A stretch of 64,000 nucleotides of DNA from Thermoplasmatota archaeon. Lineage in GTDB: Archaea; Thermoplasmatota; E2; DHVEG-1. Below are positions 3,846 to 61,238 of the stretch, piece after piece (position 1 is the stretch's first letter; each line of letters starts with the position of its first letter). The stretch lies in NCBI GenBank assembly GCA_025457885.1, contig JALOTN010000004.1, positions 10,875 through 74,874 of the forward strand. Reading direction: 5' to 3'. The position numbers and the translations under genes were made by a program. The notes beneath the pieces were generated by a model, which was not told where the DNA came from, made no database searches, and saw only the letters and a program-made list of their open reading frames with translations.

Positions 3846-4595
3846 TTGAAAGGCGGGAGACATATGGTCATAAACTATCTTATCTTAGATATCCTAATCA
3901 TCTTATTTCCGTTCTTACTTTCATTTAAGTGGAAGTTCGCCTATTATCGATACTACAAGGCATTGTTTCCAGCAATCGCCATCGTCGGAGCAGGTTACAT
4001 TTTCTGGGATGCGATTGTGACTGCAAGAGGAGACTGGTGGTTCAACTATGAGTATCTTTCTGAAATCACCATCATCGGATTACCTCTGGAGGAGATTTTA
4101 TTCTTCATTGTTGTCCCCTATTCCTGTATATTCATCTATGAGAACCTTGAGTATTTCTTTCCAGATAAAAAAACAAGATTCAGCAAGATCTTCTATGTTG
4201 TTTTGATCATATTATTCGTTCTCGGTGGACTTGCGTTCTATCACCAGGATTATACAATCCTTGCTCTGATGTCGTGTGCGTTTTTTTTACTCATCGCGCT
4301 TTGGCGTTTCCCAGACATCCTGCAATCACGGAACTACTGGCTCTACATCGGCATATCTATGATTCCCTTCATAATCTTCAATTACCTGCTCACCTCCACG
4401 CCCATCGTATTGTATAACCCTGCGGCCATCTGGGGTGGTGATGGGGCGTGGAACGGCCGGTTCTTCACTATACCACTCGAAGACTTCTTCTATAATTTCT
4501 CGATGCTATCGTTTTATCTGCTTGTTTACCGGTATTTCAGGAAACGATGGATTCAACCATCTACATCAAAACAAGGATTAAAGGATCACAAATGA
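3846..4595 (+). CDS. crtY: Lycopene cyclase domain protein (fused CrtYc/CrtYd-type)
   Basis: 249 aa polytopic membrane protein. It has two copies of the conserved PxE(E/D) motif of heterodimeric-type lycopene cyclases (GLPLEEILFF and TIPLEDFFY). Located beside crtI/crtB. Confidence 0.6.
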   Translation: MKGGRHMVINYLILDILIILFPFLLSFKWKFAYYRYYKALFPAIAIVGAGYIFWDAIVTARGDWWFNYEYLSEITIIGLPLEEILFFIVVPYSCIFIYENLEYFFPDKKTRFSKIFYVVLIILFVLGGLAFYHQDYTILALMSCAFFLLIALWRFPDILQSRNYWLYIGISMIPFIIFNYLLTSTPIVLYNPAAIWGGDGAWNGRFFTIPLEDFFYNFSMLSFYLLVYRYFRKRWIQPSTSKQGLKDHK

Positions 4596-4608
4596 GTGAT
4601 TCAATGGT

Positions 4609-5124
4609 GTGACCACCATGGATTTTTTTGGAGTGATTCTGGATGGATCTTCGGATCCTTTGCTTTTCGGGATTTTCTTTTTCGTCTATGTCGTGCTCAA
4701 TACCCTTGCCCTGCCTTTCCCAGTGGAACTGGGATTATTCAACCCTGCTTTTCATCCCTTGTTCTTGATAGGTATCCTTGCCGTGGGGCGAGGTGTTGGA
4801 GCGTTTTGTGTTTTTGAAATTGGAGGATTTATCAGAAAAAAGACAAGCACGTGGTCTGTAGGTGCATTCCGGTTACGAAAAACAATCAGCTCTCTTGAGC
4901 GGTTTATCCAACAGTATGGATATTATGCCTTGTTCCTCCTTATGAGCATCCCACTCATGCTGGATTCAGTGGTGCTGTATCTCTTTTCTCTTCTCAATAA
5001 ACGAAAGGATACCAAGGTAGCCCTTGCCCGGCGATGGTTTATCGGTATCACCATTGCAGCAAGTATCCTGCGTGGCACCATCATTCTTTTGGTTGCTGAA
5101 TTTGTAAAAATAATCCTGATATGA
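4609..5124 (+). CDS. Small polytopic membrane protein, unknown function
   Basis: 171 aa, 4-5 predicted TM helices, same strand and tightly spaced after crtY. No recognisable motif. Confidence 0.35.
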   Translation: MTTMDFFGVILDGSSDPLLFGIFFFVYVVLNTLALPFPVELGLFNPAFHPLFLIGILAVGRGVGAFCVFEIGGFIRKKTSTWSVGAFRLRKTISSLERFIQQYGYYALFLLMSIPLMLDSVVLYLFSLLNKRKDTKVALARRWFIGITIAASILRGTIILLVAEFVKIILI

Positions 5125-5183
5125 TATATTTAGTAATACAATAGGTATTACCTCTGGTATCACTTCTGGAGGAACATGTCATC

Positions 5184-6548
5184 ATGGTCTATCGTTCACC
5201 CTGGATCGTCCAATTAAAACGGTCCCGACCTATCCAAAAAGCACACTCCTTGCTCCACCCCGATTGTGTAGTTGTCGGTGGTGGTATCGCTGGGGTTGTC
5301 ACCGCATATTTTATTCTTCGACAGACATCTCATACTATCCTTCTCCTCGAGGCCGATCGTGTCGCCCATGGTGCGACTGGTCATAACGCAGGACAAGTAG
5401 TCAGCTACTTTGAGCGTCCTCTTCATGATATCGCCAGTCAGTTTGGGGCGCCTCTCACCTTAGATGCTTATCATCATCTTCAGGAGACCTGGGGTGTCTT
5501 GGATGATATTATCACCACAGCACACCTAAGGACGCCAGTCACAACATTCACTGGGTACGCTGGATACAGCACGTATCACCAACTTTTGAACCAATTAAAG
5601 ACTCTCCACCTGCTGCGCGATTCAAAAACAACACCAGAAAATCTCCTTCTCCTAAAAGAATCAGACCTTCATGGTAAGATCCCCTCCCTGTATCACCCTT
5701 ACATCAGCCTCATAAAACACCAGGAGTTATTACAACTTCTTGGTACGGGAAATTCACAGTATATCGCTGCTTTTCCCGAAAAAAAAGGATGTACCAACTC
5801 AAGTCTTCTGACCGAAGAACTCGTTGGGTATCTCCTCAGTACCTACCCTGAACGGTTTCATCTTTCAGAGCTTACACCTGTGAAAAGAATTTTGGTCACT
5901 CCAACACAAATTACACTTTCGACACCAGATCAGATCATCAAGACCCCTAGTCTGATTCTCTGCACCAATGGGTATACAACGTATCAGATTGATGCAGAAC
6001 CACTTAAACCGGTTCTCCAAAGATTTCATATTACTTCGACAGTCGGTTACATGAATGGATACCTAGATACTACCCTAAAACCACCGACCGCGACCCAATA
6101 CTTCACAACCCAAAACATCTCTCCAATCGATCCTTATTATTATCTCACGCGACGCATCTATGAACATGGAAGACATGCACATACATTGTTATGCATCGGT
6201 GGACCAGAACATCACTTACCGCAGGATCAACCTTATTCCCCTCATGCACAGTATCTTCCGAACGCACATCATGAAATCGACGCCTTCATTCATACAACCA
6301 GCAGCTATCCTCTTATCAAAACAACACCAGATTTTAAATGGCATGGTCTGATGGGCTATACCCCCACGATGATACGTCTGATCGGACCAGACCCACACTA
6401 TCCCAACCTCTCCTATAATCTTGGTTGCAATGGAGTCGGGATTTTACCATCTATCTATGCGGGAAAACGACTCGGTAACTATCTGGCTGGACGCTCCTTG
6501 AAACCATCTATATTTGATACAAAATTCATGAATAACAAAGAATTTTAA
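5184..6548 (+). CDS. FAD-dependent oxidoreductase (DAO-like)
   Basis: 454 aa. N-terminal dinucleotide-binding motif VVVGGGIAGVVTAYFIL (GxGxxG). Sits between crtY and crtI. Confidence 0.55.
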   Translation: MVYRSPWIVQLKRSRPIQKAHSLLHPDCVVVGGGIAGVVTAYFILRQTSHTILLLEADRVAHGATGHNAGQVVSYFERPLHDIASQFGAPLTLDAYHHLQETWGVLDDIITTAHLRTPVTTFTGYAGYSTYHQLLNQLKTLHLLRDSKTTPENLLLLKESDLHGKIPSLYHPYISLIKHQELLQLLGTGNSQYIAAFPEKKGCTNSSLLTEELVGYLLSTYPERFHLSELTPVKRILVTPTQITLSTPDQIIKTPSLILCTNGYTTYQIDAEPLKPVLQRFHITSTVGYMNGYLDTTLKPPTATQYFTTQNISPIDPYYYLTRRIYEHGRHAHTLLCIGGPEHHLPQDQPYSPHAQYLPNAHHEIDAFIHTTSSYPLIKTTPDFKWHGLMGYTPTMIRLIGPDPHYPNLSYNLGCNGVGILPSIYAGKRLGNYLAGRSLKPSIFDTKFMNNKEF

Positions 6549-6625
6549 TAGAAAATAAATATACTCCTGGAACAAAACTTTCTTTAATATCAAAACTATC
6601 CCTAAAATACGTAACGTGAAACACT

Positions 6626-8092
6626 ATGAAGAAAATAATTATAATCGGTGCAGGTTTTGGAGGAATAGCCGCAGCAGCCCTCCTGGCAAGAGATGGACAT
6701 GATGTCACTGTCGTAGAAAAAAACGATCAACCCGGAGGACGAGCCATCGTCTGGAACGAAAAAGGGTTCGTCTTCGACATGGGGCCATCCTGGTACCTCA
6801 TGCCTGATGTTTTCGAACAGTTCTTTGCTCTCTTTAACAAAAAACCAGAAGACTATTATAAACTCATTCGACTCAACCCAGCCTACCGGGTGTTCTTCGA
6901 TAAAGATGAAATCGTCGATATCTCGCCAGACCTTGAGAAGAACCTTCAACTCTTCGAACGATATCAAAAAGGAGGCCGGGAGCAATTAAAAAAATATCTC
7001 CAGGCTGCAGAATATCAATATACAATAGCAATGAAAGAGTTCATCTACAAGGAATATCGTCATCTCTGGGATTTCTTCAGCCTCCGTCTGTTGTTAAAAG
7101 GTAGTAAACTGCATATCTTCACCAGTCTTGACCGCTATGCGCAACGATACATCACCGATCAGAAATTACGGAAGATCCTTGAATACACCATGGTGTTCCT
7201 TGGAGGCACCCCCTTTGACACCCCTGCTTTATACTCCTTGATGTCCCATGTCGATTTCAACCTGGGCGTCTGGTACCCCGATGGTGGATTTGGAGCTCTT
7301 GCGAGAGGTTTTCAACGCCTCGCGGTTGAACAAGGCGTGAAATTCGAATTCAACACAGAAGTAGAAAAAATAATCGTGAAAAACGGGTCGGTCACTGGTG
7401 TGAAAACTTCTAAAGGAGAGACGTCTGCTGATCTGATCATAGCCAACGCAGATTATCCCTATGTTGAAATGAATCTACTCGAACCAACCTATCAAACCTA
7501 TCCAAAGGAATACTGGGAAAAGAAAGCCATTGCTCCCTCTGCCCTGCTCATGTACCTCGGGGTAAAAGGAAAAATCAAATCTTTTGCGCATCATAACCTA
7601 TATTTTGCCACTGACTGGGAGAAACATTTCCAGACAATATTCCATGAACCCAGCTGGCCAGAAAACCCAAGCTACTACGTCAGCTGTCCCTCAAAATCAG
7701 ATGCCACGGTCGCACCAGCAGATGATGAAAACCTCTTCATCCTGGTTCCGGTTGCTGCTGGATTAGAAGATACACCCCAGGTTAGAGAACGATATTTCAA
7801 CCAAATCATAAATCATTTGGAACTACTCACCGGGGAAAACATCAAGGACCGCATTATTGTCAAACGATTATTCGCCCATAAGGATTTCACCCAGTACTAT
7901 CATGCATACAAAGGGACCGCTCTTGGTCTAGCACATACATTGGGGCAAACCGCTATCTTCCGATGCTCCCATCAGAGTAAAAAAGTCAAAGGACTGTATT
8001 ACACCGGCCATTACACACATCCTGGCATCGGAGTTCCCATGGTAGTGATTTCCTCACAAATCATTGCTGAACAGCTTAGGAGCTCTCCATGA
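6626..8092 (+). CDS. crtI: Phytoene desaturase (CrtI family)
   Basis: 488 aa. N-terminal MKKIIIIGAGFGGIAAAALLARDGHDVTVVEKNDQPGGRA is the canonical CrtI FAD-binding start. Length and C-terminal region are typical. Overlaps crtB by 4 bp. Confidence 0.85.
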   Translation: MKKIIIIGAGFGGIAAAALLARDGHDVTVVEKNDQPGGRAIVWNEKGFVFDMGPSWYLMPDVFEQFFALFNKKPEDYYKLIRLNPAYRVFFDKDEIVDISPDLEKNLQLFERYQKGGREQLKKYLQAAEYQYTIAMKEFIYKEYRHLWDFFSLRLLLKGSKLHIFTSLDRYAQRYITDQKLRKILEYTMVFLGGTPFDTPALYSLMSHVDFNLGVWYPDGGFGALARGFQRLAVEQGVKFEFNTEVEKIIVKNGSVTGVKTSKGETSADLIIANADYPYVEMNLLEPTYQTYPKEYWEKKAIAPSALLMYLGVKGKIKSFAHHNLYFATDWEKHFQTIFHEPSWPENPSYYVSCPSKSDATVAPADDENLFILVPVAAGLEDTPQVRERYFNQIINHLELLTGENIKDRIIVKRLFAHKDFTQYYHAYKGTALGLAHTLGQTAIFRCSHQSKKVKGLYYTGHYTHPGIGVPMVVISSQIIAEQLRSSP

Positions 8093-27841: not shown

Positions 27842-30286
27842 ATGGTTGACGTAAAACATTCTAAGCGACAGCTAGTCACCATCAAAAAAAGACAATGGTC
27901 TCTTTCTAGCATCTTCGTGCTCCTCCTTCTTACCAGTGGAATATCATCCACCTCAGCAACCATCATCCCCCAGGCTACACCAATCATAGAATCAACCGCC
28001 ACCACCGACCACATCCCAAACCAAAACACCCTTGAAACACCCACCACAACAAATCCCTGGTGGAACCCCAACTGGCATTACCGCACCATTTACAACATCA
28101 CGGGAACCGGCACCATATCCCTCCAAATAAATTTCACACAACTCCTTCGCAACACCCTCCACGTCCTAGACAAAACCTTTGACAACACCACCATCGCTAT
28201 CGTACAATACTCCGCAAACGGGACCACCACCATCGTCAACACCAGCTGGTTCAATGAAACCACCACCTACCACAATAAAACAAACGCAAAAGGCATCCTC
28301 ACCTGGAAAATCACCACACCATCACTCTACCATGTCTACTTCGACGTCCTCGAAAACCAAGGAACACGCAACCCAACACCAGAAACACCAAACCTCACCC
28401 CCTCAGGCAACCCCCAAGCCGCCATCATCTCCACCCACGGCTGGTGGCCTGCGTTTACCACCTCATTTGAAACCTACTATCCCCCTCCAAAAACACTCAA
28501 TGTACAACTCCAAACCACCGCACTAGCAACAAACATCACCGCTAAAGTCCTCTACAACAACAACCTCAACTTCACCAAACAACTCACCACCCAAGACCAT
28601 CTCCAATGGAACATCACCATCGCCAACCTTACAAAAATCGGAGATTGGACCATCCAAATAAACGGACACGACGACGCAGGATATCAACCAACACAGATAT
28701 CCATCAGTTTCTACATCGGAAAACCAGATCTCGTCGCCACCGCCATCACCGCACCAAACATCTCCTACATAGGAAACAATGTAACCGTCACAGGACATCT
28801 CATCGCAAAAAATACCACCGTCGAACATGTCGACATCAGCCTAAAAGTCGACACTATCAACGTCGACACACAAAAAAACCTGACCATACAAAAGAATATC
28901 AACACCTCCTACGACCTGGTCTGGGTCAACTGCACCAAAGGAATCCATAACCTCTCAATAAACATTATTTACCACCAAGACTCAAATCAAACAAATAACG
29001 TCCGCTGGAAACACATCACCATCGAAGGAATACCAGACCTCTCAGTACTCAATCTGAGTGTCTCACCAACCACCGTCAACGAAGGAAAACCAATCACCGT
29101 CAACGCCTTCATCAAAAACAAAGGTGACGGCAACGCATCCGACTACACCATGGTTCTCTACTGTGAACAAAACCAAAACAACCAAACCATGCTCTATATA
29201 CAAAGCAAAAACACCACGACCTTCTCCCTCAAAAAAGATCAATTTACCAACGTGACACTCACCTGGTCACAGACACGATACGGGAAAACCACCTTCAACG
29301 GAGAATGGGCGGTAGGCATACAAATCCTGACCTCAGAAGAAACACCAGACAAGAATGAAACAGACAACAAAAAACCACTCTACCATGCACTCTACGTCAT
29401 CGCAGCAGAACGAAACCCCCCGCTTCTAACCAACTTAGAGTTTCTCTCCACCCTTGAAATAGGAGACCAACAACAAATCACCGTCAAAGCAACCGATGAA
29501 TCAGGAATCGACACCGTGACCATCTCCCTAAAAACCCCCAACAAAACCTACCTAAACACCACCATGACCCCTATTGAAGGAAACACATACGAATATCTCC
29601 TCACAACCACACAAATCGGCAGACATAATTTTACCATTAAAGCCACCGACCTTTCACCGAATAAAAACCAATCCATCATCACCGGATTTTTCATCGTCAC
29701 TGAAGATCAAACCCCACCGACCATCACATACTATGGAGTCAACCCCATCAAACAACTCCCGAATCTCCCCGTGGAAATCCGCTGTATCGCTACCGATTAC
29801 TCAGGGATACGATCCGCAGAGGTAACCATACAATTCCCAGACAACACCGTACAGACCCACACCATGAATACCCCACCAGGGGATACAAAATACATCTATG
29901 AAAAAACCTACGATATCACAGGAAAATACCTTTTCACCATCACCATCAGAGACACCCTAGGAAACCCAATCACCACCGACGAAAAAACATTCTGGGTCAC
30001 CGAGCATCTCGACGACACCGACAATGATGGGATACCAGATGACTGGGAGAAACGCTACGGATTCAACCCCACTGACCCCAACGATGCATCCAATGACCAG
30101 GACGATGACGGATTCACCAATAAAGAAGAATACCAACAAGGAACCAATCCACTGAAAAAACAGACCTCCACACCAGAAATCATGGATCAACTGCAGCAGA
30201 ACTGGGCGTATCTCTCCGCCTCTCTTCTCATCTTTCTTATCATCATCATCCTAGCAATCTACGGCATACGGAGACGCACCCCATGA
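27842..30286 (+). CDS. Large cell-surface protein (CARDB-like domain, Asp-rich Ca-binding repeats, C-terminal TM anchor)
   Basis: 814 aa. Signal peptide, Thr/Asn-rich region with many N-x-T/S sequons, a CARDB-like segment (VSPTTVNEGKPITVNAFIKNKGDGNASDY), thrombospondin-type-3-like DDTDNDGIPDDWE...DPNDASNDQDDDGFTNKEE, and a C-terminal hydrophobic helix + RRR. Confidence 0.6.
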   Translation: MVDVKHSKRQLVTIKKRQWSLSSIFVLLLLTSGISSTSATIIPQATPIIESTATTDHIPNQNTLETPTTTNPWWNPNWHYRTIYNITGTGTISLQINFTQLLRNTLHVLDKTFDNTTIAIVQYSANGTTTIVNTSWFNETTTYHNKTNAKGILTWKITTPSLYHVYFDVLENQGTRNPTPETPNLTPSGNPQAAIISTHGWWPAFTTSFETYYPPPKTLNVQLQTTALATNITAKVLYNNNLNFTKQLTTQDHLQWNITIANLTKIGDWTIQINGHDDAGYQPTQISISFYIGKPDLVATAITAPNISYIGNNVTVTGHLIAKNTTVEHVDISLKVDTINVDTQKNLTIQKNINTSYDLVWVNCTKGIHNLSINIIYHQDSNQTNNVRWKHITIEGIPDLSVLNLSVSPTTVNEGKPITVNAFIKNKGDGNASDYTMVLYCEQNQNNQTMLYIQSKNTTTFSLKKDQFTNVTLTWSQTRYGKTTFNGEWAVGIQILTSEETPDKNETDNKKPLYHALYVIAAERNPPLLTNLEFLSTLEIGDQQQITVKATDESGIDTVTISLKTPNKTYLNTTMTPIEGNTYEYLLTTTQIGRHNFTIKATDLSPNKNQSIITGFFIVTEDQTPPTITYYGVNPIKQLPNLPVEIRCIATDYSGIRSAEVTIQFPDNTVQTHTMNTPPGDTKYIYEKTYDITGKYLFTITIRDTLGNPITTDEKTFWVTEHLDDTDNDGIPDDWEKRYGFNPTDPNDASNDQDDDGFTNKEEYQQGTNPLKKQTSTPEIMDQLQQNWAYLSASLLIFLIIIILAIYGIRRRTP

Positions 30287-40588: not shown

Positions 40589-41293
40589 TTAAGATTCCCC
40601 CATGTTCAAGACTCTGATAGCAAGCTCATCGGCTCGTTTCGCGATATCCAAGCGTTTCTTCGTCCCAACCGTACCACCGATGCGTACCGCTTGTTTCTTC
40701 GGGTCAATGGTGTCTAGCTCCTTGACGGTATGAACCATGACTTCCTCGAAACCAGATGCATGGAGCCCGCGGACGATTTTTGGTGCACGGAACCCTACCC
40801 GCACCTTGCTTGGTCGATACTTCAAATTGATCCGTAATTTTGAGGTATATCCAGTCGGGCGTCGCCAGTTCTTCGGGATCCTTTTATACCGGAACCCCTC
40901 GTCCCGTAGGAAATGCGGGGTGCGTTTCTTGATTTGCCGGCGGATCACCAGCTGCTCCTTCTGCTGCTCGTTTAACTGTGGTTTTATCTTCGGATGATAT
41001 GCCCCTTTCTGCTGCTCGACGATCTCCACTGCTTCTTCTTTCTTCTCTGGTTGTTCTGCTTGTTCTTTCTTCTCATCGGTTTTCTTCACTGGTTTTTCTT
41101 TTTTGACTTTGAGTTGATCAATGATTTCCTTCGCATTTTTCTCTGAGACTCCTTTCAGCTTCGTCAGATCCTTTATCTTTGCTTTTTTCAGTTTCTCAAG
41201 GGAATCATACCCGTTGTCATAGAGGAGTTTTGCTTTTGCTTTACCCACACCTTTTAACGCTTCAAACTCCTTTAACACTGCTTCTTTTGTCAT
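40589..41293 (-). CDS. rpl32e: 50S ribosomal protein L32e with N-terminal HhH extension
   Basis: 234 aa. C-terminal ~130 aa are L32e (RRQIKKRTPHFLRDEGFRYKRIPKNWRRPTG...). The N-terminal ~95 aa contain an HhH-like module (LKGVGKAKAKLLYDNGYDSLEKL...LKGVSEKNAKEII) plus a KE-rich linker. Confidence 0.8.
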   Translation of the reverse strand: MTKEAVLKEFEALKGVGKAKAKLLYDNGYDSLEKLKKAKIKDLTKLKGVSEKNAKEIIDQLKVKKEKPVKKTDEKKEQAEQPEKKEEAVEIVEQQKGAYHPKIKPQLNEQQKEQLVIRRQIKKRTPHFLRDEGFRYKRIPKNWRRPTGYTSKLRINLKYRPSKVRVGFRAPKIVRGLHASGFEEVMVHTVKELDTIDPKKQAVRIGGTVGTKKRLDIAKRADELAIRVLNMGES

Positions 41294-57032: not shown

Positions 57033-57548
57033 ATGAAAAAGAAATTTTTTATCATTGACACCTCAGCCATTCTCTCTGGAAAACCACTCTCCTTCCCTGA
57101 TGCTACCATTATCACCTCACCAGGCGTCTCCGATGAATTTCATCCAGGAGGAAGAGATTTTCAACGATTTGAACTCCTCAAAGAAACAGGGTTAAGTATT
57201 CAAATGCCCACAAAAGACTCACTAAAAATGGTTAAACAAACAGCACAAAAAACTGGTGACGACCGACGATTATCCCCTGCTGACATTGAAATAATCGCAC
57301 TTGCCCTGGATATCAACAGAGAAGAGGGGCAAGAAGCGACTCTTCTGAGTGATGATTATTCCGTTCAAAATATCGCTTCAACCCTTCAAATAAACTACCA
57401 AGGGCTTGTACAAAAAGGAATAACAAAAAAGTTTAAATGGGTCTCTCGTTGTCCAGGGTGCGGAAAACAATTCAATGAGATAAAAAAAATCTGTCCTATC
57501 TGTGGGACCGAGACAAAAAACCATCTTTCACAGAAAAAAAAACTTTGA
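57033..57548 (+). CDS. Nob1-like PIN-domain endonuclease with C-terminal zinc ribbon
   Basis: 171 aa. PIN N-terminus (FFIIDTSAIL), then CPGCGKQ...CPICG, matching archaeal Nob1 architecture. Confidence 0.55.
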   Translation: MKKKFFIIDTSAILSGKPLSFPDATIITSPGVSDEFHPGGRDFQRFELLKETGLSIQMPTKDSLKMVKQTAQKTGDDRRLSPADIEIIALALDINREEGQEATLLSDDYSVQNIASTLQINYQGLVQKGITKKFKWVSRCPGCGKQFNEIKKICPICGTETKNHLSQKKKL

Positions 57549-58384
57549 TTGTGAAACAAATGAACCTAAAAGACCAGTTCATGAAATTTTGGAAAAGTGA
57601 GGATAACAAAATCTCGATCATTCGAGACGTCCTCGTCGCTCTCCTTGCGGTATTCATCATTTTAATGGTTTTATGGGGGTATACTGGTCAATGGTTCGCC
57701 GCCCCAATGGTCGCAATAGAATCTGGAAGTATGGAGCATCCCAATTCTCCTTTCGGTCGCCTCGGGACGATTGATGCAGGCGATATGGTGTTAGTCCAGA
57801 AAGTATCAAAGAAAAACGATATCGTACCCCATGGTGGGCCGGTGAAAGGTGCCGAGGCAGAGAACGGATGGCAGACCTATGGGGACTACGGAGATGTCAT
57901 TATCTACAAACCACTTGGTCGAACCGATGTTTCGCAGATTATCCATCGGGCGATGTGCTGGGTGGATGTCTATCAAACAAACGGTGTTATCACCTACACA
58001 GTCGCGGATTATGGAATCTATAATCAAACAAGTCTCACGATTGAGCATTTAGGATTATTCAATAGAAATCCCGGTTGGAGCCACTCAGGGTATCTGACAA
58101 AAGGAGATAACAATGAGATAATTGACCAGGTCACGGATATTTGCCCAGAACCTGTTCAAGTCGATTGGATCTCTGGGAAAGCTCGACTTGAAATCCCCTG
58201 GCTTGGAGCAATCAATCTGTTTTTTGAGGATATTCTGCATGGAAAGAATACCATCGGAAATGTCCATCAGGATAGTCTTATCTGTCTTGGTGTTGTGATT
58301 GCTGTCCTTGTCTCTATACCAATCACCCTTGATGTCTATGATTATGTGAAGAAACGTAAAAAAAATGAGGTAAAAAACGAATAA
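57545..58384 (+). CDS. Signal peptidase I (archaeal/eukaryotic Sec11-type, S26B)
   Basis: 279 aa. N-terminal TM, catalytic Ser box IESGSMEHP (SxSMxP), C-terminal TM anchor. The start overlaps the upstream stop. Confidence 0.6.
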   Translation: MIVKQMNLKDQFMKFWKSEDNKISIIRDVLVALLAVFIILMVLWGYTGQWFAAPMVAIESGSMEHPNSPFGRLGTIDAGDMVLVQKVSKKNDIVPHGGPVKGAEAENGWQTYGDYGDVIIYKPLGRTDVSQIIHRAMCWVDVYQTNGVITYTVADYGIYNQTSLTIEHLGLFNRNPGWSHSGYLTKGDNNEIIDQVTDICPEPVQVDWISGKARLEIPWLGAINLFFEDILHGKNTIGNVHQDSLICLGVVIAVLVSIPITLDVYDYVKKRKKNEVKNE

Positions 58385-58442: not shown

Positions 58443-61154
58443 TTAAAAATGCTCGATTGAATCAAACACCTGCCATTCTACAAACTCTGTGCATTCTGCT
58501 ATTATTCTTTGGGCATTTTTCTTTTTTAAACCGGTTTTCATGAGGTCTTTGACGGTTGCTGAACGAAGCTTCTCAATACTTGTATATCCTGAGTTGCTCA
58601 GAATTCCAGCGGTCTCTTGATCAATACTATCAAAGGCGACGAACGGATCGTTTCGCTCAGCAACGGGGTTCGTTAATTTTTCCTTTATGATTTCTTCTTT
58701 CATATGGAGATCCATTTTTTTCCTTGCTTTCTCCTCAGCCTTCGATTGGTATCTCTGTTCTTCTTTCTCTCTCTTTTTTTGTTCTTTTTGCATCTTTCGT
58801 TCAAATGCTTTTGTTTTTCGGAGTTCCTTTTCTTCTGCAGCTATGCGTACTAAATCCATCGTTTGTTTCTGTTGTTCTACAACTTTACGTTCATCGATGA
58901 GTTTTGTCTCTTTCGTTTTTCCAAAAGATAATCTGCTGATTTGTTGCTTGTCTTTTTTCTGTTCAATGAGTTTTTGCTGCTGTTCCTTCTTTTCCTTTTC
59001 TTTTGCTTCAAATTCCATTATCGCGATTTTTCGTTTTTCTATTTTTTGTTCCTCTTTGAGGCGTTTTTTTGCCTCACGTTCTTTTTCCTCTGCTTGTTTT
59101 TTTAGGAGTTTTTCATCTGTTATTTTCTGTTTCCAAGCTTCATTGCCTCCCTTTGGTGCCTTGAAAAGTGTTTGACGTTGTTTCTCTTCTAGTTTCTTCT
59201 GGAGTTGCTGTTCTTTTTCTTTCTTTTTTAACTCCAGGCGTTCTCGATAGGCTTTTTCTTTTTGCTCCTTTTGCAGATGTTTCTGATCTTTTCTTTTTTC
59301 TTTTTCTATCTGTTTTAGTTTTTCTTTTTCTAATACGTGGTCGTGAATAGCTGATGGATGATGTTTAAGGTCTTGTGGTGTCTCTTCCTTAGTGGTTTTT
59401 TCCTGGGGAAGTGTTTTTCGTTCTTCTTTTTTAGCGCCAAAGAACGATTTATGTACTTTTTCTGGTTTTTCTTTTGTGAAAACAGGGGGTTTCGGGAGGG
59501 GTTGTTCTTGTGTGGTGCTATCTGGTGATGGCGCAAGAGGTGTCTTTTTTTCTTTCGTTATCTTTTCATGTTTTTGTTTTTCCTTTTTGTGTCGTTCGGT
59601 AAGTTCGATGTGCGATTTTTCTTCCATTTCCTTTAGGAGTCGCTGTTCCTCCTGTTGTTTTTGTTTGACTTGGGCTGCGGTGTGTTTCTCTTGGATTTCT
59701 TTTTGTTCTTGTTCTTCCCGTTGTTTTTGTTTTGTTTGTAATGTTTCAAGTCTGATTTGTATTTCTTTTTGTTTTGCCTGTCTTTTTTCTTCTATGGCTT
59801 TTTGTTTTGCATCCTGTTTTGCTTTTTTTGCCTCAAGTTTCTTTTGCTTTCTTTCTTCTTTTTCTTTTTTAAGCATCGCAGCCTGTTCGAGCCGGAGTTT
59901 TGCTTCCCGTTCTTTTAAGAGGCGTTGTTCTTCCTGTTCTTTTTGTTTCGTTTCGACTGCTGCTTTTTTCAACTCGAAATCCTTTTGTTTTTGGGCCTGT
60001 TTTTGTTTATGTTGAAACTCTATCCATTCGAGTTTCAATTTTCGGTCATGTTCTTTCGCAAGCCGTTTTGCCTCCCGTTTCTTTTTTCCTACCTCGAGGC
60101 GTGCTGTTCTTTCATTTATCTTTTTTTGTTTCCGGTCTTCTTTTTCCTTTTTTTGCCGTTCGATGATTTCAAGTTTGGATTTTTTCTCTAGTTCTTTTTG
60201 AAGGTGTTGTTCTTCTTTTTCTTTTTGTTCTGCTTGGGCGAATTTTTGTTTTAACTCCAGTGTTTTTTGTGTCTTTTCCTGTTGTTGTTTTTGTTTTGCT
60301 TCTATGGTTTCAATTTTGAGTTGTTTTTCTTTTTCTTTTGCCTGATGTTTTGCCTCTTTTTCTTTTCGTTTTTCTTCAAGTCTTGTTTTTTTCTCTTCGA
60401 TTTTCTTTTGATGAGACGCCTCAGGTGCTGTTGGTGGATGTTCAAGTGGGACGGAGGCTTTTTTTTCTGTGGTGACTGCTTGGAATTCCACTGGCTCTGC
60501 AGGTGGTGGTTCTGTGTGTTGTTTGGTCGGTATGGAGAAAAACTCTTTTTTTTCTTCTTTTAAGGGAACGGCTTGTAAAAATTCCTTCTTTTTTGGTGTT
60601 GGTTCGATTGTAACGTGAGGTCCTCCGATGGCTGGTTCGTTTGAGACAGGTTGGAACTCCGGGAGGTTTTCTTCTTGACTTCGGGAGGTTTTTATTGGGA
60701 TGAATTCCTTTTGTTTCGGTTGTTTCTTTCGCCGTGTTTCTTGCGTTGTTTTCGCTGGTTTTTTCTTACTGGAAGTGATTTTTTCAATATCAAAGAGGGG
60801 TTCTTTCGCAAACGGGTCTTCCTTTACTGGTAGAAAATTGACGGGAGGTGGTGCTTGGGTTTTTTGTGTTGGTCGTGGACCGAGGTCAATTTGAATGACT
60901 CGTTCCTCCTTTTTCTGGGGTTCTTGTTGTTTTCGGAGGGCGACTCGTGGTTGGAGTCCTTCAGACTGGGGGTGCTTTGGGATGGAAGCCTGTGCTGATG
61001 GTCGATTGGTGTCCTCAGAGAGTTTTTTTCGTAACTCGTTGAGTTTTTCTGTTTCCTGCGGGGATAAGGTTCTTTGTTTTGGTAACGAGGCACTATCAAT
61101 TAATTCGTGCAACTTCTCAATGTCTTTTACTCGTGTTTTTCTCTCTCGCACCAT
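58443..61154 (-). CDS. 903-aa K/E/Q-rich coiled-coil tandem-repeat protein with C-terminal HhH-like module
   Basis: ~70% charged residues. Imperfect ~55-60 aa tandem repeats of the type KQKEQEEQRLLKE[RM]E[AE]K...KKEKE[ED]RKQKK. The C-terminal ~80 aa are non-repetitive with an HhH-like segment (ETAGILSNSGYTSIEKLRSATVKDLMKTGL..AQRIIAE). Confidence 0.55.
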   Translation of the reverse strand: MVRERKTRVKDIEKLHELIDSASLPKQRTLSPQETEKLNELRKKLSEDTNRPSAQASIPKHPQSEGLQPRVALRKQQEPQKKEERVIQIDLGPRPTQKTQAPPPVNFLPVKEDPFAKEPLFDIEKITSSKKKPAKTTQETRRKKQPKQKEFIPIKTSRSQEENLPEFQPVSNEPAIGGPHVTIEPTPKKKEFLQAVPLKEEKKEFFSIPTKQHTEPPPAEPVEFQAVTTEKKASVPLEHPPTAPEASHQKKIEEKKTRLEEKRKEKEAKHQAKEKEKQLKIETIEAKQKQQQEKTQKTLELKQKFAQAEQKEKEEQHLQKELEKKSKLEIIERQKKEKEDRKQKKINERTARLEVGKKKREAKRLAKEHDRKLKLEWIEFQHKQKQAQKQKDFELKKAAVETKQKEQEEQRLLKEREAKLRLEQAAMLKKEKEERKQKKLEAKKAKQDAKQKAIEEKRQAKQKEIQIRLETLQTKQKQREEQEQKEIQEKHTAAQVKQKQQEEQRLLKEMEEKSHIELTERHKKEKQKHEKITKEKKTPLAPSPDSTTQEQPLPKPPVFTKEKPEKVHKSFFGAKKEERKTLPQEKTTKEETPQDLKHHPSAIHDHVLEKEKLKQIEKEKRKDQKHLQKEQKEKAYRERLELKKKEKEQQLQKKLEEKQRQTLFKAPKGGNEAWKQKITDEKLLKKQAEEKEREAKKRLKEEQKIEKRKIAIMEFEAKEKEKKEQQQKLIEQKKDKQQISRLSFGKTKETKLIDERKVVEQQKQTMDLVRIAAEEKELRKTKAFERKMQKEQKKREKEEQRYQSKAEEKARKKMDLHMKEEIIKEKLTNPVAERNDPFVAFDSIDQETAGILSNSGYTSIEKLRSATVKDLMKTGLKKKNAQRIIAECTEFVEWQVFDSIEHF

Positions 61155-61238
61155 CGGCCTTGAAAAGTGTTGTCCCGTATTAATAAATTTTCCTAAAAAA
61201 AACTATAGTTGTATAACCAATAAGGTTTCTTCTGTGTT

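Follow-up and report, generated by a model that had tools for sequence, protein, structure and literature searches.

The DNA analyzed here is a stretch of 64,000 nucleotides (nt), referred to below as the window, from the Thermoplasmatota archaeon assembly GCA_025457885.1 (contig JALOTN010000004.1, positions 10,875-74,874 of the forward strand). Its minus strand carries a gene at 58443..61154 that, according to a listing of the open reading frames (ORFs), encodes a protein of 903 amino acids (aa) in one unbroken frame from ATG, followed by a stop codon. This protein, the subject of the present study, contains 20.6% K, 16.4% E, and 10.3% Q and has a predicted mass of 107 kDa and an isoelectric point (pI) of 9.7. 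A preliminary description of the locus had called it a strongly biased Lys/Glu/Gln-rich protein with distinct termini, and both the intact ORF and the composition confirm this view. The purine/pyrimidine skew reported there was also found: purines make up 66% of the coding strand of this gene, compared with 50-53% in the neighboring genes, and because of this skew the opposite plus strand contains spurious ORFs rich in F, S, C, and L (88-207 aa), as had been noticed. The sole Pfam match of the protein was HHH_5 (PF14520) at aa 846-888, with a score of 29.5 bits against a curated cut-off of 27, in agreement with the helix-hairpin-helix (HhH)-like motif previously seen at the C terminus. No match was obtained in an NCBIfam scan of the protein, and neither Pfam nor NCBIfam returned a family for its N-terminal module (N-module) or its K/E repeats (Table 1).

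A search with the full-length protein gave 32 homologs of 690-940 aa, with 34-60% identity; all the named ones came from Thermoplasmatota, and most of the 32 have a precomputed match to HHH_5 (PF14520). The metagenome-assembled genome (MAG) M9B1D of Thermoprofundales has a sister form with multiple HhH domains (see below), and orthologs of the 903-aa protein are found in SM1-50 and M11B2D, two Thermoprofundales (MBG-D, for marine benthic group D) MAGs (PMC6461988). The locus was surveyed by scanning one genome per species, which gave 18 loci. In 12 of them, on contigs spanning both flanks, the gene lies between NadA-NifS-QueC and genes for a signal-peptidase-like protein, a Nob1-PIN protein, and HisRS. 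Five others are on shorter contigs, where only the latter flank is present, and the remaining one (L012) is a paralog at another site. Across the loci, the neighboring genes are mostly 70-98% identical to those of the window, whereas the orthologs of the 903-aa protein are 34-68% identical. Therefore, the family evolves fast; nonetheless, it is retained. The closest ortholog has 60-68% protein identity, a level at which saturation of synonymous sites is to be expected. The orthologous ORF is unbroken, with the same architecture, in more than 10 independent assemblies. We conclude that the protein is real and conserved in Thermoprofundales-type Thermoplasmatota. The preliminary description had proposed a check for homologs and had considered a fast-evolving filler, an idea that would be favored if no homolog shared the termini. 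The 32 homologs do have conserved termini, so the protein is not such a filler. The supplements of a transcriptome paper on Thermoprofundales do not mention the orthologous scaffold.

Conservation was calculated per region as mean identity in a 30-sequence alignment. The C-terminal domain was the best conserved part (71%, with 16 invariant columns), followed by the N-module, MVRERKxRxKDIEKLHELIDSASLPKQK...LxxLRKRLS (64%), in which K6, I12, H16, I19, D20, S21, and S23 are invariant. Two short helices are predicted in the N-module, at aa 12-21 and 32-47, by an AlphaFold2 (AF2) model computed for the monomer with the family alignment. A profile of the N-module gave only a chance match to L14 (E 0.96) against the Protein Data Bank (PDB), and profile searches with it returned family members and fragments only, with zero fusions to known domains. 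The segment that follows (aa 67-126) contains two short motifs, LxPRVVVHK..KKEEKVIQI and EDPFxxEPLYEIEK, which are 58-59% identical, compared with 15-31% in the linkers, and P69, F115, and E124 are invariant in it. The conserved N-terminal peptide part of the protein is therefore about 125 aa long. The Pro-rich linkers, predicted to be disordered (aa 48-249 and 532-605 if the short motifs are included in the first), were absent from the preliminary description. Within these otherwise variable linkers, the alignment showed that aromatic-acidic motifs are kept: linker 1 contains LPEFQPV as well as EPVEFQAV, a diverged copy of the family motif IPSFEPVEF, and linker 2 contains a W-E-S acidic-aromatic motif in most orthologs. 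With W/F-x-x-V placed after acidic residues, the aromatic-acidic motifs may recall those of the LIR/AIM or SIM type. The central repeat block is 52% identical. In the second K/E-rich region, the last helix, MDLVRIAAEEKELRKTKAFERKMQKEQKK, is well conserved (60% identity over aa 745-832).

The protein had been described as built from imperfect repeats of about 55-60 aa. The repeats are real; however, they are confined to aa 250-531, and the unit measures 47 aa (141 nt). Six such units form three 94-aa super-repeats of an A and a B unit, so that clear repeats account for about one-third of the protein. In the autocorrelation of the protein compared with shuffles, lag 94 gave a z of 12.5 (44% identity) and lag 47 gave a z of 11.4, and the direct repeats in the DNA of the gene were spaced by 141 nt. 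No clear period was found by autocorrelation in the second K/E-rich region (aa 606-832). The two motifs quoted in the preliminary description were located as KQKEQEEQRLLKEREAK...KKEKEERKQKK (aa 403-437) and KQKQQEEQRLLKEMEEK...KKEKQKHEK (aa 497-531). Compared as nucleotide sequences, the units share 48-73% identity with each other, and exact DNA repeats reach at most 14 nt within the gene. With copies less than 70% identical, the 141-nt period escaped Tandem Repeats Finder, which reported nothing but short T/C-rich microrepeats. With units this diverged and exact repeats this short, both collapse of the repeats during assembly and replication slippage appear unlikely. The number of units varies among orthologs, from about 2 to about 7 between lineages. 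In the alignment, the central units are closer to their orthologous counterparts than to the neighboring units of the same protein; therefore, the array is old and has not been homogenized. Thus, the expected variation in repeat number does exist between lineages, yet the units are old, diverged, and matched between orthologs, and the hypervariable locus proposed earlier is not supported. The orthologous gene was interrupted by an NN scaffold gap in one locus (L007, 7627-7628) and was split into short ORFs in another (L014, about 4200-7500). These breaks are probably assembly or consensus errors in an A-rich gene rather than real pseudogenes.

We then considered the structure of the K/E-rich regions. 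The AF2 model contains a single continuous helix from aa 255 to 507 (253 residues, about 38 nm), with a predicted local distance difference test (pLDDT) score of 80-90, three further helices at aa 604-663, 671-742, and 752-828, and a small helical domain at aa 846-895. Disorder was predicted at aa 48-254 and 508-603, and Pro-rich parts with predicted disorder make up about 30% of the protein. Only 15-20% of the residues in the helical regions are hydrophobic. Neither in the window protein nor in any of 29 orthologs did their power at periods of 3.3-4.0 residues rise above that of shuffles, and the hydrophobic a/d positions of a coiled coil, with a period of about 3.5 residues or a hendecad period of 3.67, were not found. 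Charge, in contrast, was periodic over aa 255-507, at 7.84 residues (47/6; z 13.6) and 3.62 residues (47/13; z 7.3), and both periodicities recur in most orthologs. On a helix with 3.6-3.615 residues per turn, K/R and D/E point, on average, in directions about 180 degrees apart, with face resultants of 0.23-0.26 and 0.29-0.34, respectively. Because 47 residues correspond to 13.0 helical turns, the basic stripe and the opposite acidic stripe would stay in phase over about 38 nm. The net charge is +30 for aa 250-531 and +25 for aa 606-832. The repeat region (aa 250-531) combines a net positive charge with a basic stripe on one face, two features of a KER-type helix. Its 0.2-0.5 ion pairs (i to i+3/i+4) per residue and its lack of a hydrophobic seam speak for a charged single alpha-helix (SAH), whereas its share of charged residues (only 50-70%) and of Q (about 14%) speaks against one. 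On the basis of the model and these periodicities, the long K/E helix is probably a single helix and not a coiled coil, contrary to the preliminary description. The class of SMC/Rad50-type proteins was also considered; neither Pfam nor NCBIfam gave an SMC_N or AAA match, and coiled-coil periodicity was not detected. When the full-length model was searched with Foldseek, only the C-terminal domain was recovered, and the helices matched nothing.

The C-terminal domain consists of a DPFVAFDSID lead-in, a compact helical core with two HhH motifs, that is, an (HhH)2 fold, as judged from AF2 and Foldseek, and an aromatic-acidic tail, EFVEWxVFD. In the AF2 model of the domain, the core has a pLDDT of about 90, with helices at model residues 25-33, 39-43, 47-51, and 57-74. 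The second hairpin has the sequence G-L-K-K-K, in which G875, K877, and K879 are invariant and K878 is nearly invariant. When the family profile was compared with PDB sequences, the matches were the acidic repeats (AR) AR1/AR2 of NusA (E 6e-6), the SAM domain of EphA2 (E 7e-4), and the N-terminal domain (NTD) of RadA (E 9e-4), together with the Rad51 NTD and the (HhH)2 domain of Hef. At the level of structure, the best Foldseek matches were the NTDs of RadA/Rad51, with a root mean square deviation (rmsd) of 1.2-1.8 Å over 48-59 residues and 24-35% identity, followed by the C-terminal domain of AF1548, NusA AR, Hjm, and Topo V. Superpositions on the RadA/Rad51 NTD, NusA AR, and AF1548 gave rmsd values of 1.2-2.4 Å and query-normalized template modeling (TM) scores of 0.5-0.64. 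The domain shares with the RadA/Rad51 NTD the motifs G-Y/F-x-S/T-h-E-x-L and h-x-G-h-x-x-x-x-A-x-x-I. Unlike in RadA/Rad51, it is C-terminal in the 903-aa protein, the RecA ATPase core is missing, and the second hairpin is far more basic. With NusA AR1/AR2, it shares a D-x-F-x-x-x-x-x-I-D lead-in and an acidic character; however, it is present in one copy instead of two, and the NusA repeats lack a Lys-rich hairpin. The identity of the whole protein with either of these was rejected. No Rad51, RecA, or AAA match was found, and the remainder of the protein consists of helices and disordered linkers; similarly, the N-terminal, S1, and KH domains of NusA are absent, HHH_5 being the only domain found by Pfam. 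A related HhH domain is encoded elsewhere in the window. The ribosomal protein eL32 (40589-41293, minus strand, 234 aa) starts at its N terminus with an HHH_5 domain (aa 9-62) and continues with a K/E-rich linker and the L32e domain. Between this HhH domain and the C-terminal domain of the 903-aa protein, the identity is 40% and the hhalign probability 97.5%. Keyword searches of the literature found no paper on L32e with a helix-hairpin-helix and none on DUF7898.

A profile of the C-terminal domain was also searched against 1.84 billion representative proteins, which gave 314 matches at an E value of ≤0.001. The highest-ranking of the matched proteins are 500-1136 aa long and contain the domain in 3-7 tandem copies. 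All the full-length ones examined (P0044, P0045, P0047, and P0049) have the N-module in common with the 903-aa protein. In these multi-(HhH)2 sisters (e.g., PNX47558.1 from M9B1D), the N-module reads M.KDKKSKK..I.KLR..LD, the motifs L.PKV.IH, E.IFEIEKV, and LPEW.PV are shared, and the (HhH)2 domain is of the same type; the (HhH)2 array of Methanopyrus topoisomerase V is comparable by analogy. Unlike the 903-aa protein, the sisters have 3-7 (HhH)2 domains as well as Zn ribbons, and at the C terminus they carry a distinct module, YTLYEK...FFSK...PYLRKKK, without a Pfam match; the 47-aa repeats are missing. Their locus also differs, since they lie with PyrB-PyrI, gene X, and RtcB-PAC2, always so in the loci L019, L021, and L023, and zero neighbor genes are common to the two types of loci. 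Therefore, what defines the family in terms of sequence is the N-module together with one or more (HhH)2 domains; the middle part is made of either (HhH)2 arrays or K/E helices.

Several other proteins contain parts of this architecture. In a deep-branching lineage, a second paralog, which has a distinct version of the N-module (MVSGKHSKTYDINKIHEFID...), directly separates the K/E gene from the signal-peptidase-like gene; it is full length in L022 (356-1963; P0093, 535 aa, with a C-terminal HhH) and is found as a 190-aa version, P0199, in L018 (8472-9044). The paralog at another site mentioned above (L012, 5488-6681, MAG JAFNFT01 bin_19, also the source of L010) has 397 aa; it lacks the N-module but has K/E repeats and, at the C terminus, the same (HhH)2 domain. 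A gap of 3 nt separates its start from two KaiC-like genes upstream (DUF7504 and DUF7090), which are preceded by genes for a PAS histidine kinase and a response regulator, and a KaiC-PAS-histidine-kinase gene lies downstream of it. Finally, in P0033 (1008 aa, from a Joint Genome Institute [JGI] metagenome), 47-aa K/E units, EKQARQEVKEREREAERVAKEYEEKLRLERLEVQKKEKEEVLRKKLE, form an N-terminal extension of a FlaI/PilB (T2SSE)-type ATPase (PF00437). Therefore, the 47-aa repeat module occurs in at least three architectures.

Taken together, the HhH domain and an ER/K-like charged helix are known parts; the family, the N-module, and the striped repeat of 47 residues and 13 turns have no family in Pfam or NCBIfam, and a few keyword searches gave no paper on related features. 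Binding of nucleic acids by the protein is plausible, in view of the net-basic helices, the HHH_5 score, the matches to DNA-binding folds, and the conserved Lys hairpin. The matched N-terminal domains of RadA/Rad51 and the matched domains of Topo V and Hjm are DNA binding, and several (HhH)2 domains combined with Zn ribbons are a typical layout of multivalent DNA binders. A shared role of the K/E helices in polyanion binding would fit, because the sister subfamily replaces them with (HhH)2 arrays. We therefore favor, tentatively, the possibility that the protein is a cytoplasmic, nonenzymatic scaffold specific to Thermoprofundales-type Thermoplasmatota that acts as a DNA-binding spacer or tether; this interpretation has a real chance of being correct while falling somewhat short of probable. 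In such a scaffold, the G-h-K-x-K hairpin of the (HhH)2 domain would bind duplex nucleic acid without sequence specificity, and the basic stripe of the long helix would add to the same binding. The stiff helix would fix a distance of tens of nanometers, and the N-module together with the short motifs may recruit one or more partners, resulting in a DNA-anchored tether or spacer. Of the functions suggested in the preliminary description, a nucleoid-organizing one is compatible with this proposal, since a DNA-associated role agrees with the (HhH)2 fold, the net-basic helices, and the multi-(HhH)2 sisters.

A number of observations weigh against a DNA-binding spacer. Taken as a whole, the C-terminal domain is acidic (pI 5.0, net charge -3), because of its lead-in and tail, and in the sequence-profile comparison it matched best the acidic repeats of NusA, whose ligands are proteins and not DNA. 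The Foldseek E values are weak (0.05-0.3), as a consequence of the small size of the domain. In the helix, just 50-70% of the residues are charged and about 14% are Q, making it less extreme than a classical ER/K helix, and the AF2 monomer model is compatible with oligomerization. For both subfamilies, the surroundings of the gene are stable housekeeping genes, with no functional link. In addition, single helices of myosins with a similar composition do not bind DNA (PMC10335832).

Some of these same points are expected if the protein is instead a protein-protein adaptor, in which the (HhH)2 domain would be a protein binder similar to NusA AR or SAM domains and the K/E helix a stiff spacer or spring linking two protein machines. 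The profile matches to NusA AR1/AR2 and to SAM domains, as well as the acidic C-terminal domain, would be explained in this way, and the RecA-superfamily ATPases are one candidate class of partners. The 397-aa paralog lies beside KaiC-like genes, P0033 joins the 47-aa repeats to a FlaI/T2SSE-type ATPase, and in RadA this type of domain is joined to a RecA-fold core. However, the main gene is not adjacent to any ATPase gene, a pure spacer would not need helices with a net charge of +55, and the invariant Lys-rich hairpin and the sisters with Zn ribbons and multiple (HhH)2 domains resemble nucleic acid binders, so we regard an adaptor as rather unlikely. The ligand might also be RNA, with the K/E helices and the HhH domain binding rRNA, tRNA, or ribosomes, as eukaryotic K/E-rich ribosome-biogenesis factors do. 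The related HhH domain of eL32, with its K/E-rich linker, points in this direction, and the gene neighborhoods could be read likewise, with QueC, HisRS, and the Nob1-like PIN gene near the K/E locus and RtcB, Asp/Asn-tRNA synthetase, and ArcTGT near the multi-HhH locus. But proximity to housekeeping genes is a weak argument, the more so as the two loci have no common neighbor; the structural matches are DNA-handling proteins, and the keyword search gave no paper on the eL32 extension. A role in RNA binding or on the ribosome is, in our estimate, quite unlikely.

Two further explanations had been raised in the preliminary description. A coiled-coil cytoskeletal or filament protein would account for the long predicted helices, and side-by-side pairing of helices by charge, through their opposite basic and acidic stripes, is conceivable in principle. 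This explanation is highly improbable given the lack of heptad or hendecad hydrophobic periodicity, the low share of hydrophobic residues, and the large Pro-rich part predicted to be disordered; the helices also matched no known filament protein in the fold and family searches. Finally, the gene could be an assembly artifact or a hypervariable (contingency) repeat locus without a conserved function. The variable number of units, the few MAGs in which the gene is broken or gapped (e.g., L007 and L014), and its faster evolution than that of its neighbors could be cited in favor of this idea. We give it almost no weight, since the units are diverged, with no exact repeat above 14 nt, the intact ORF recurs with the same architecture in independent assemblies, and conservation is strong both at the termini and in the central repeat block.

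The helix can be compared with the ER/K SAHs of myosins, INCENP, and drebrin, with which it shares charge blocks of about 7.8 residues, the absence of a hydrophobic seam, and a continuous helix in the AF2 model. Unlike these, it is net basic and not near neutral, it contains about 14% Gln, and its charges are segregated by face. To our knowledge, long charged single helices have been well studied in eukaryotic motors and scaffolds but hardly in archaea, the archaeal K/E helix is much longer than any characterized SAH, and DNA binding by a charged single helix has been shown so far only for CAF-1. In yeast Cac1, a subunit of CAF-1, the KER is a single alpha-helix that binds DNA via a basic stripe and also serves as a spacer, working together with a winged-helix domain (PMC10335832). 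The archaeal protein resembles this KER in having a long K/E/R-type helix without a hydrophobic seam, with a net positive charge and a basic bias on one face, and it resembles CAF-1 in having a second small domain of a DNA-binding type in the same chain and in the proposed roles of binder and spacer. On the other hand, the archaeal helix is about 3 times longer (253 versus 90 aa), Q-rich, and made of exact 47-residue repeats, and the second domain is an (HhH)2 domain, not a winged helix. The protein is archaeal, has no histone-chaperone context, and shows no sequence homology to CAF-1 as judged by the Pfam and NCBIfam scans, which gave no match for the helical region; the likeness of this region to the CAF-1 KER is a functional analogy only.

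The family thus offers a natural repeat-built helix of about 250 residues, with a unit of 47 residues and 13 turns, in Thermoprofundales, an abundant uncultured order of sediments. If the helix binds DNA, the family would add a new type to the archaeal nucleoid-associated proteins and would serve as a simple model of charge-patterned molecular rulers. If it does not, the protein would be an ordinary lineage-specific scaffold and a reminder that K/E-rich proteins are often wrongly labeled "coiled coil." A bolder version of the first case is a new class of archaeal chromatin or nucleoid proteins, in which the striped helix of about 38 nm would turn an unbroken basic stripe toward the DNA and be a DNA ruler or tether, anchored by (HhH)2 and evolutionarily interchangeable with arrays of 3-7 (HhH)2 domains, and which would be the first prokaryotic counterpart of the CAF-1 KER; we consider this version unlikely.

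Table 1. Features of the gene for the 903-aa protein and of its upstream region (window coordinates)
Feature	Position	Strand	Basis
Complete coding sequence, 903 aa + stop	58443..61154	-	ORF, 32 homologs of 690-940 aa, conserved locus
Upstream block, probable own promoter	61155..61195	-	Near-invariant in 10/11 orthologous loci
N-terminal module, aa 1-47	61014..61154	-	Alignment, AF2
Short motifs, aa 67-126	60777..60956	-	58-59% identity
Pro-rich linker 1, aa 127-249, predicted disordered	60408..60776	-	pLDDT <50, 22% identity, 19 Pro
Six 47-aa K/E/Q repeats, aa 250-531	59562..60407	-	141-nt/47-aa period
Pro-rich linker 2, aa 532-605, predicted disordered	59340..59561	-	pLDDT <50, 20% identity
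Second K/E-rich helical region, aa 606-832	58659..59339	-	AF2, alignment
C-terminal (HhH)2 domain, aa 833-903	58446..58658	-	HHH_5, AF2, Foldseek

The region directly upstream of the ATG was also compared among orthologous loci. A block of about 40 nt, TAGGAAAATTTATTAATACGGGACAACACTTTTCAAGGCCG, was near-invariant in 10 of the 11 loci, though their proteins are only 45-68% identical, and the DNA farther upstream was not conserved. It includes a TATA-like sequence, TTTATTAATA, about 27-37 nt before the ATG, a pattern that is unique in the window. Judged by its sequence, the block is probably a promoter of the gene itself, which would give a very short leader or none. The spacer between the TATA-like box and the ATG is conserved as well. 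Gene callers sometimes read through the block, which results in the prefix GKFINTGQHFS in P0004, P0006, P0008, and P0023.

On the side of the stop codon, the neighboring gene (57545-58384, plus strand) encodes a membrane protein of 279 aa that is 73-90% conserved across the loci and has no Pfam match. Its match to archaeal signal peptidase I (TIGR02228) was below threshold, at 28.9 bits for a cut-off of 51.85. The start of this gene overlaps the stop of the Nob1-like PIN/Zn-ribbon gene by 4 nt, which suggests a HisRS-Nob1-peptidase operon. An Rfam scan of the whole 64-kb window gave zero RNA families. Elsewhere in the window, a gene at 27842-30286 (plus strand) encodes an 814-aa protein with CARDB and bacterial TSP3 repeats, and the region at 28-30 kb is the most compositionally skewed part of the window, with a GC skew of -0.46 and an AT skew of +0.38.

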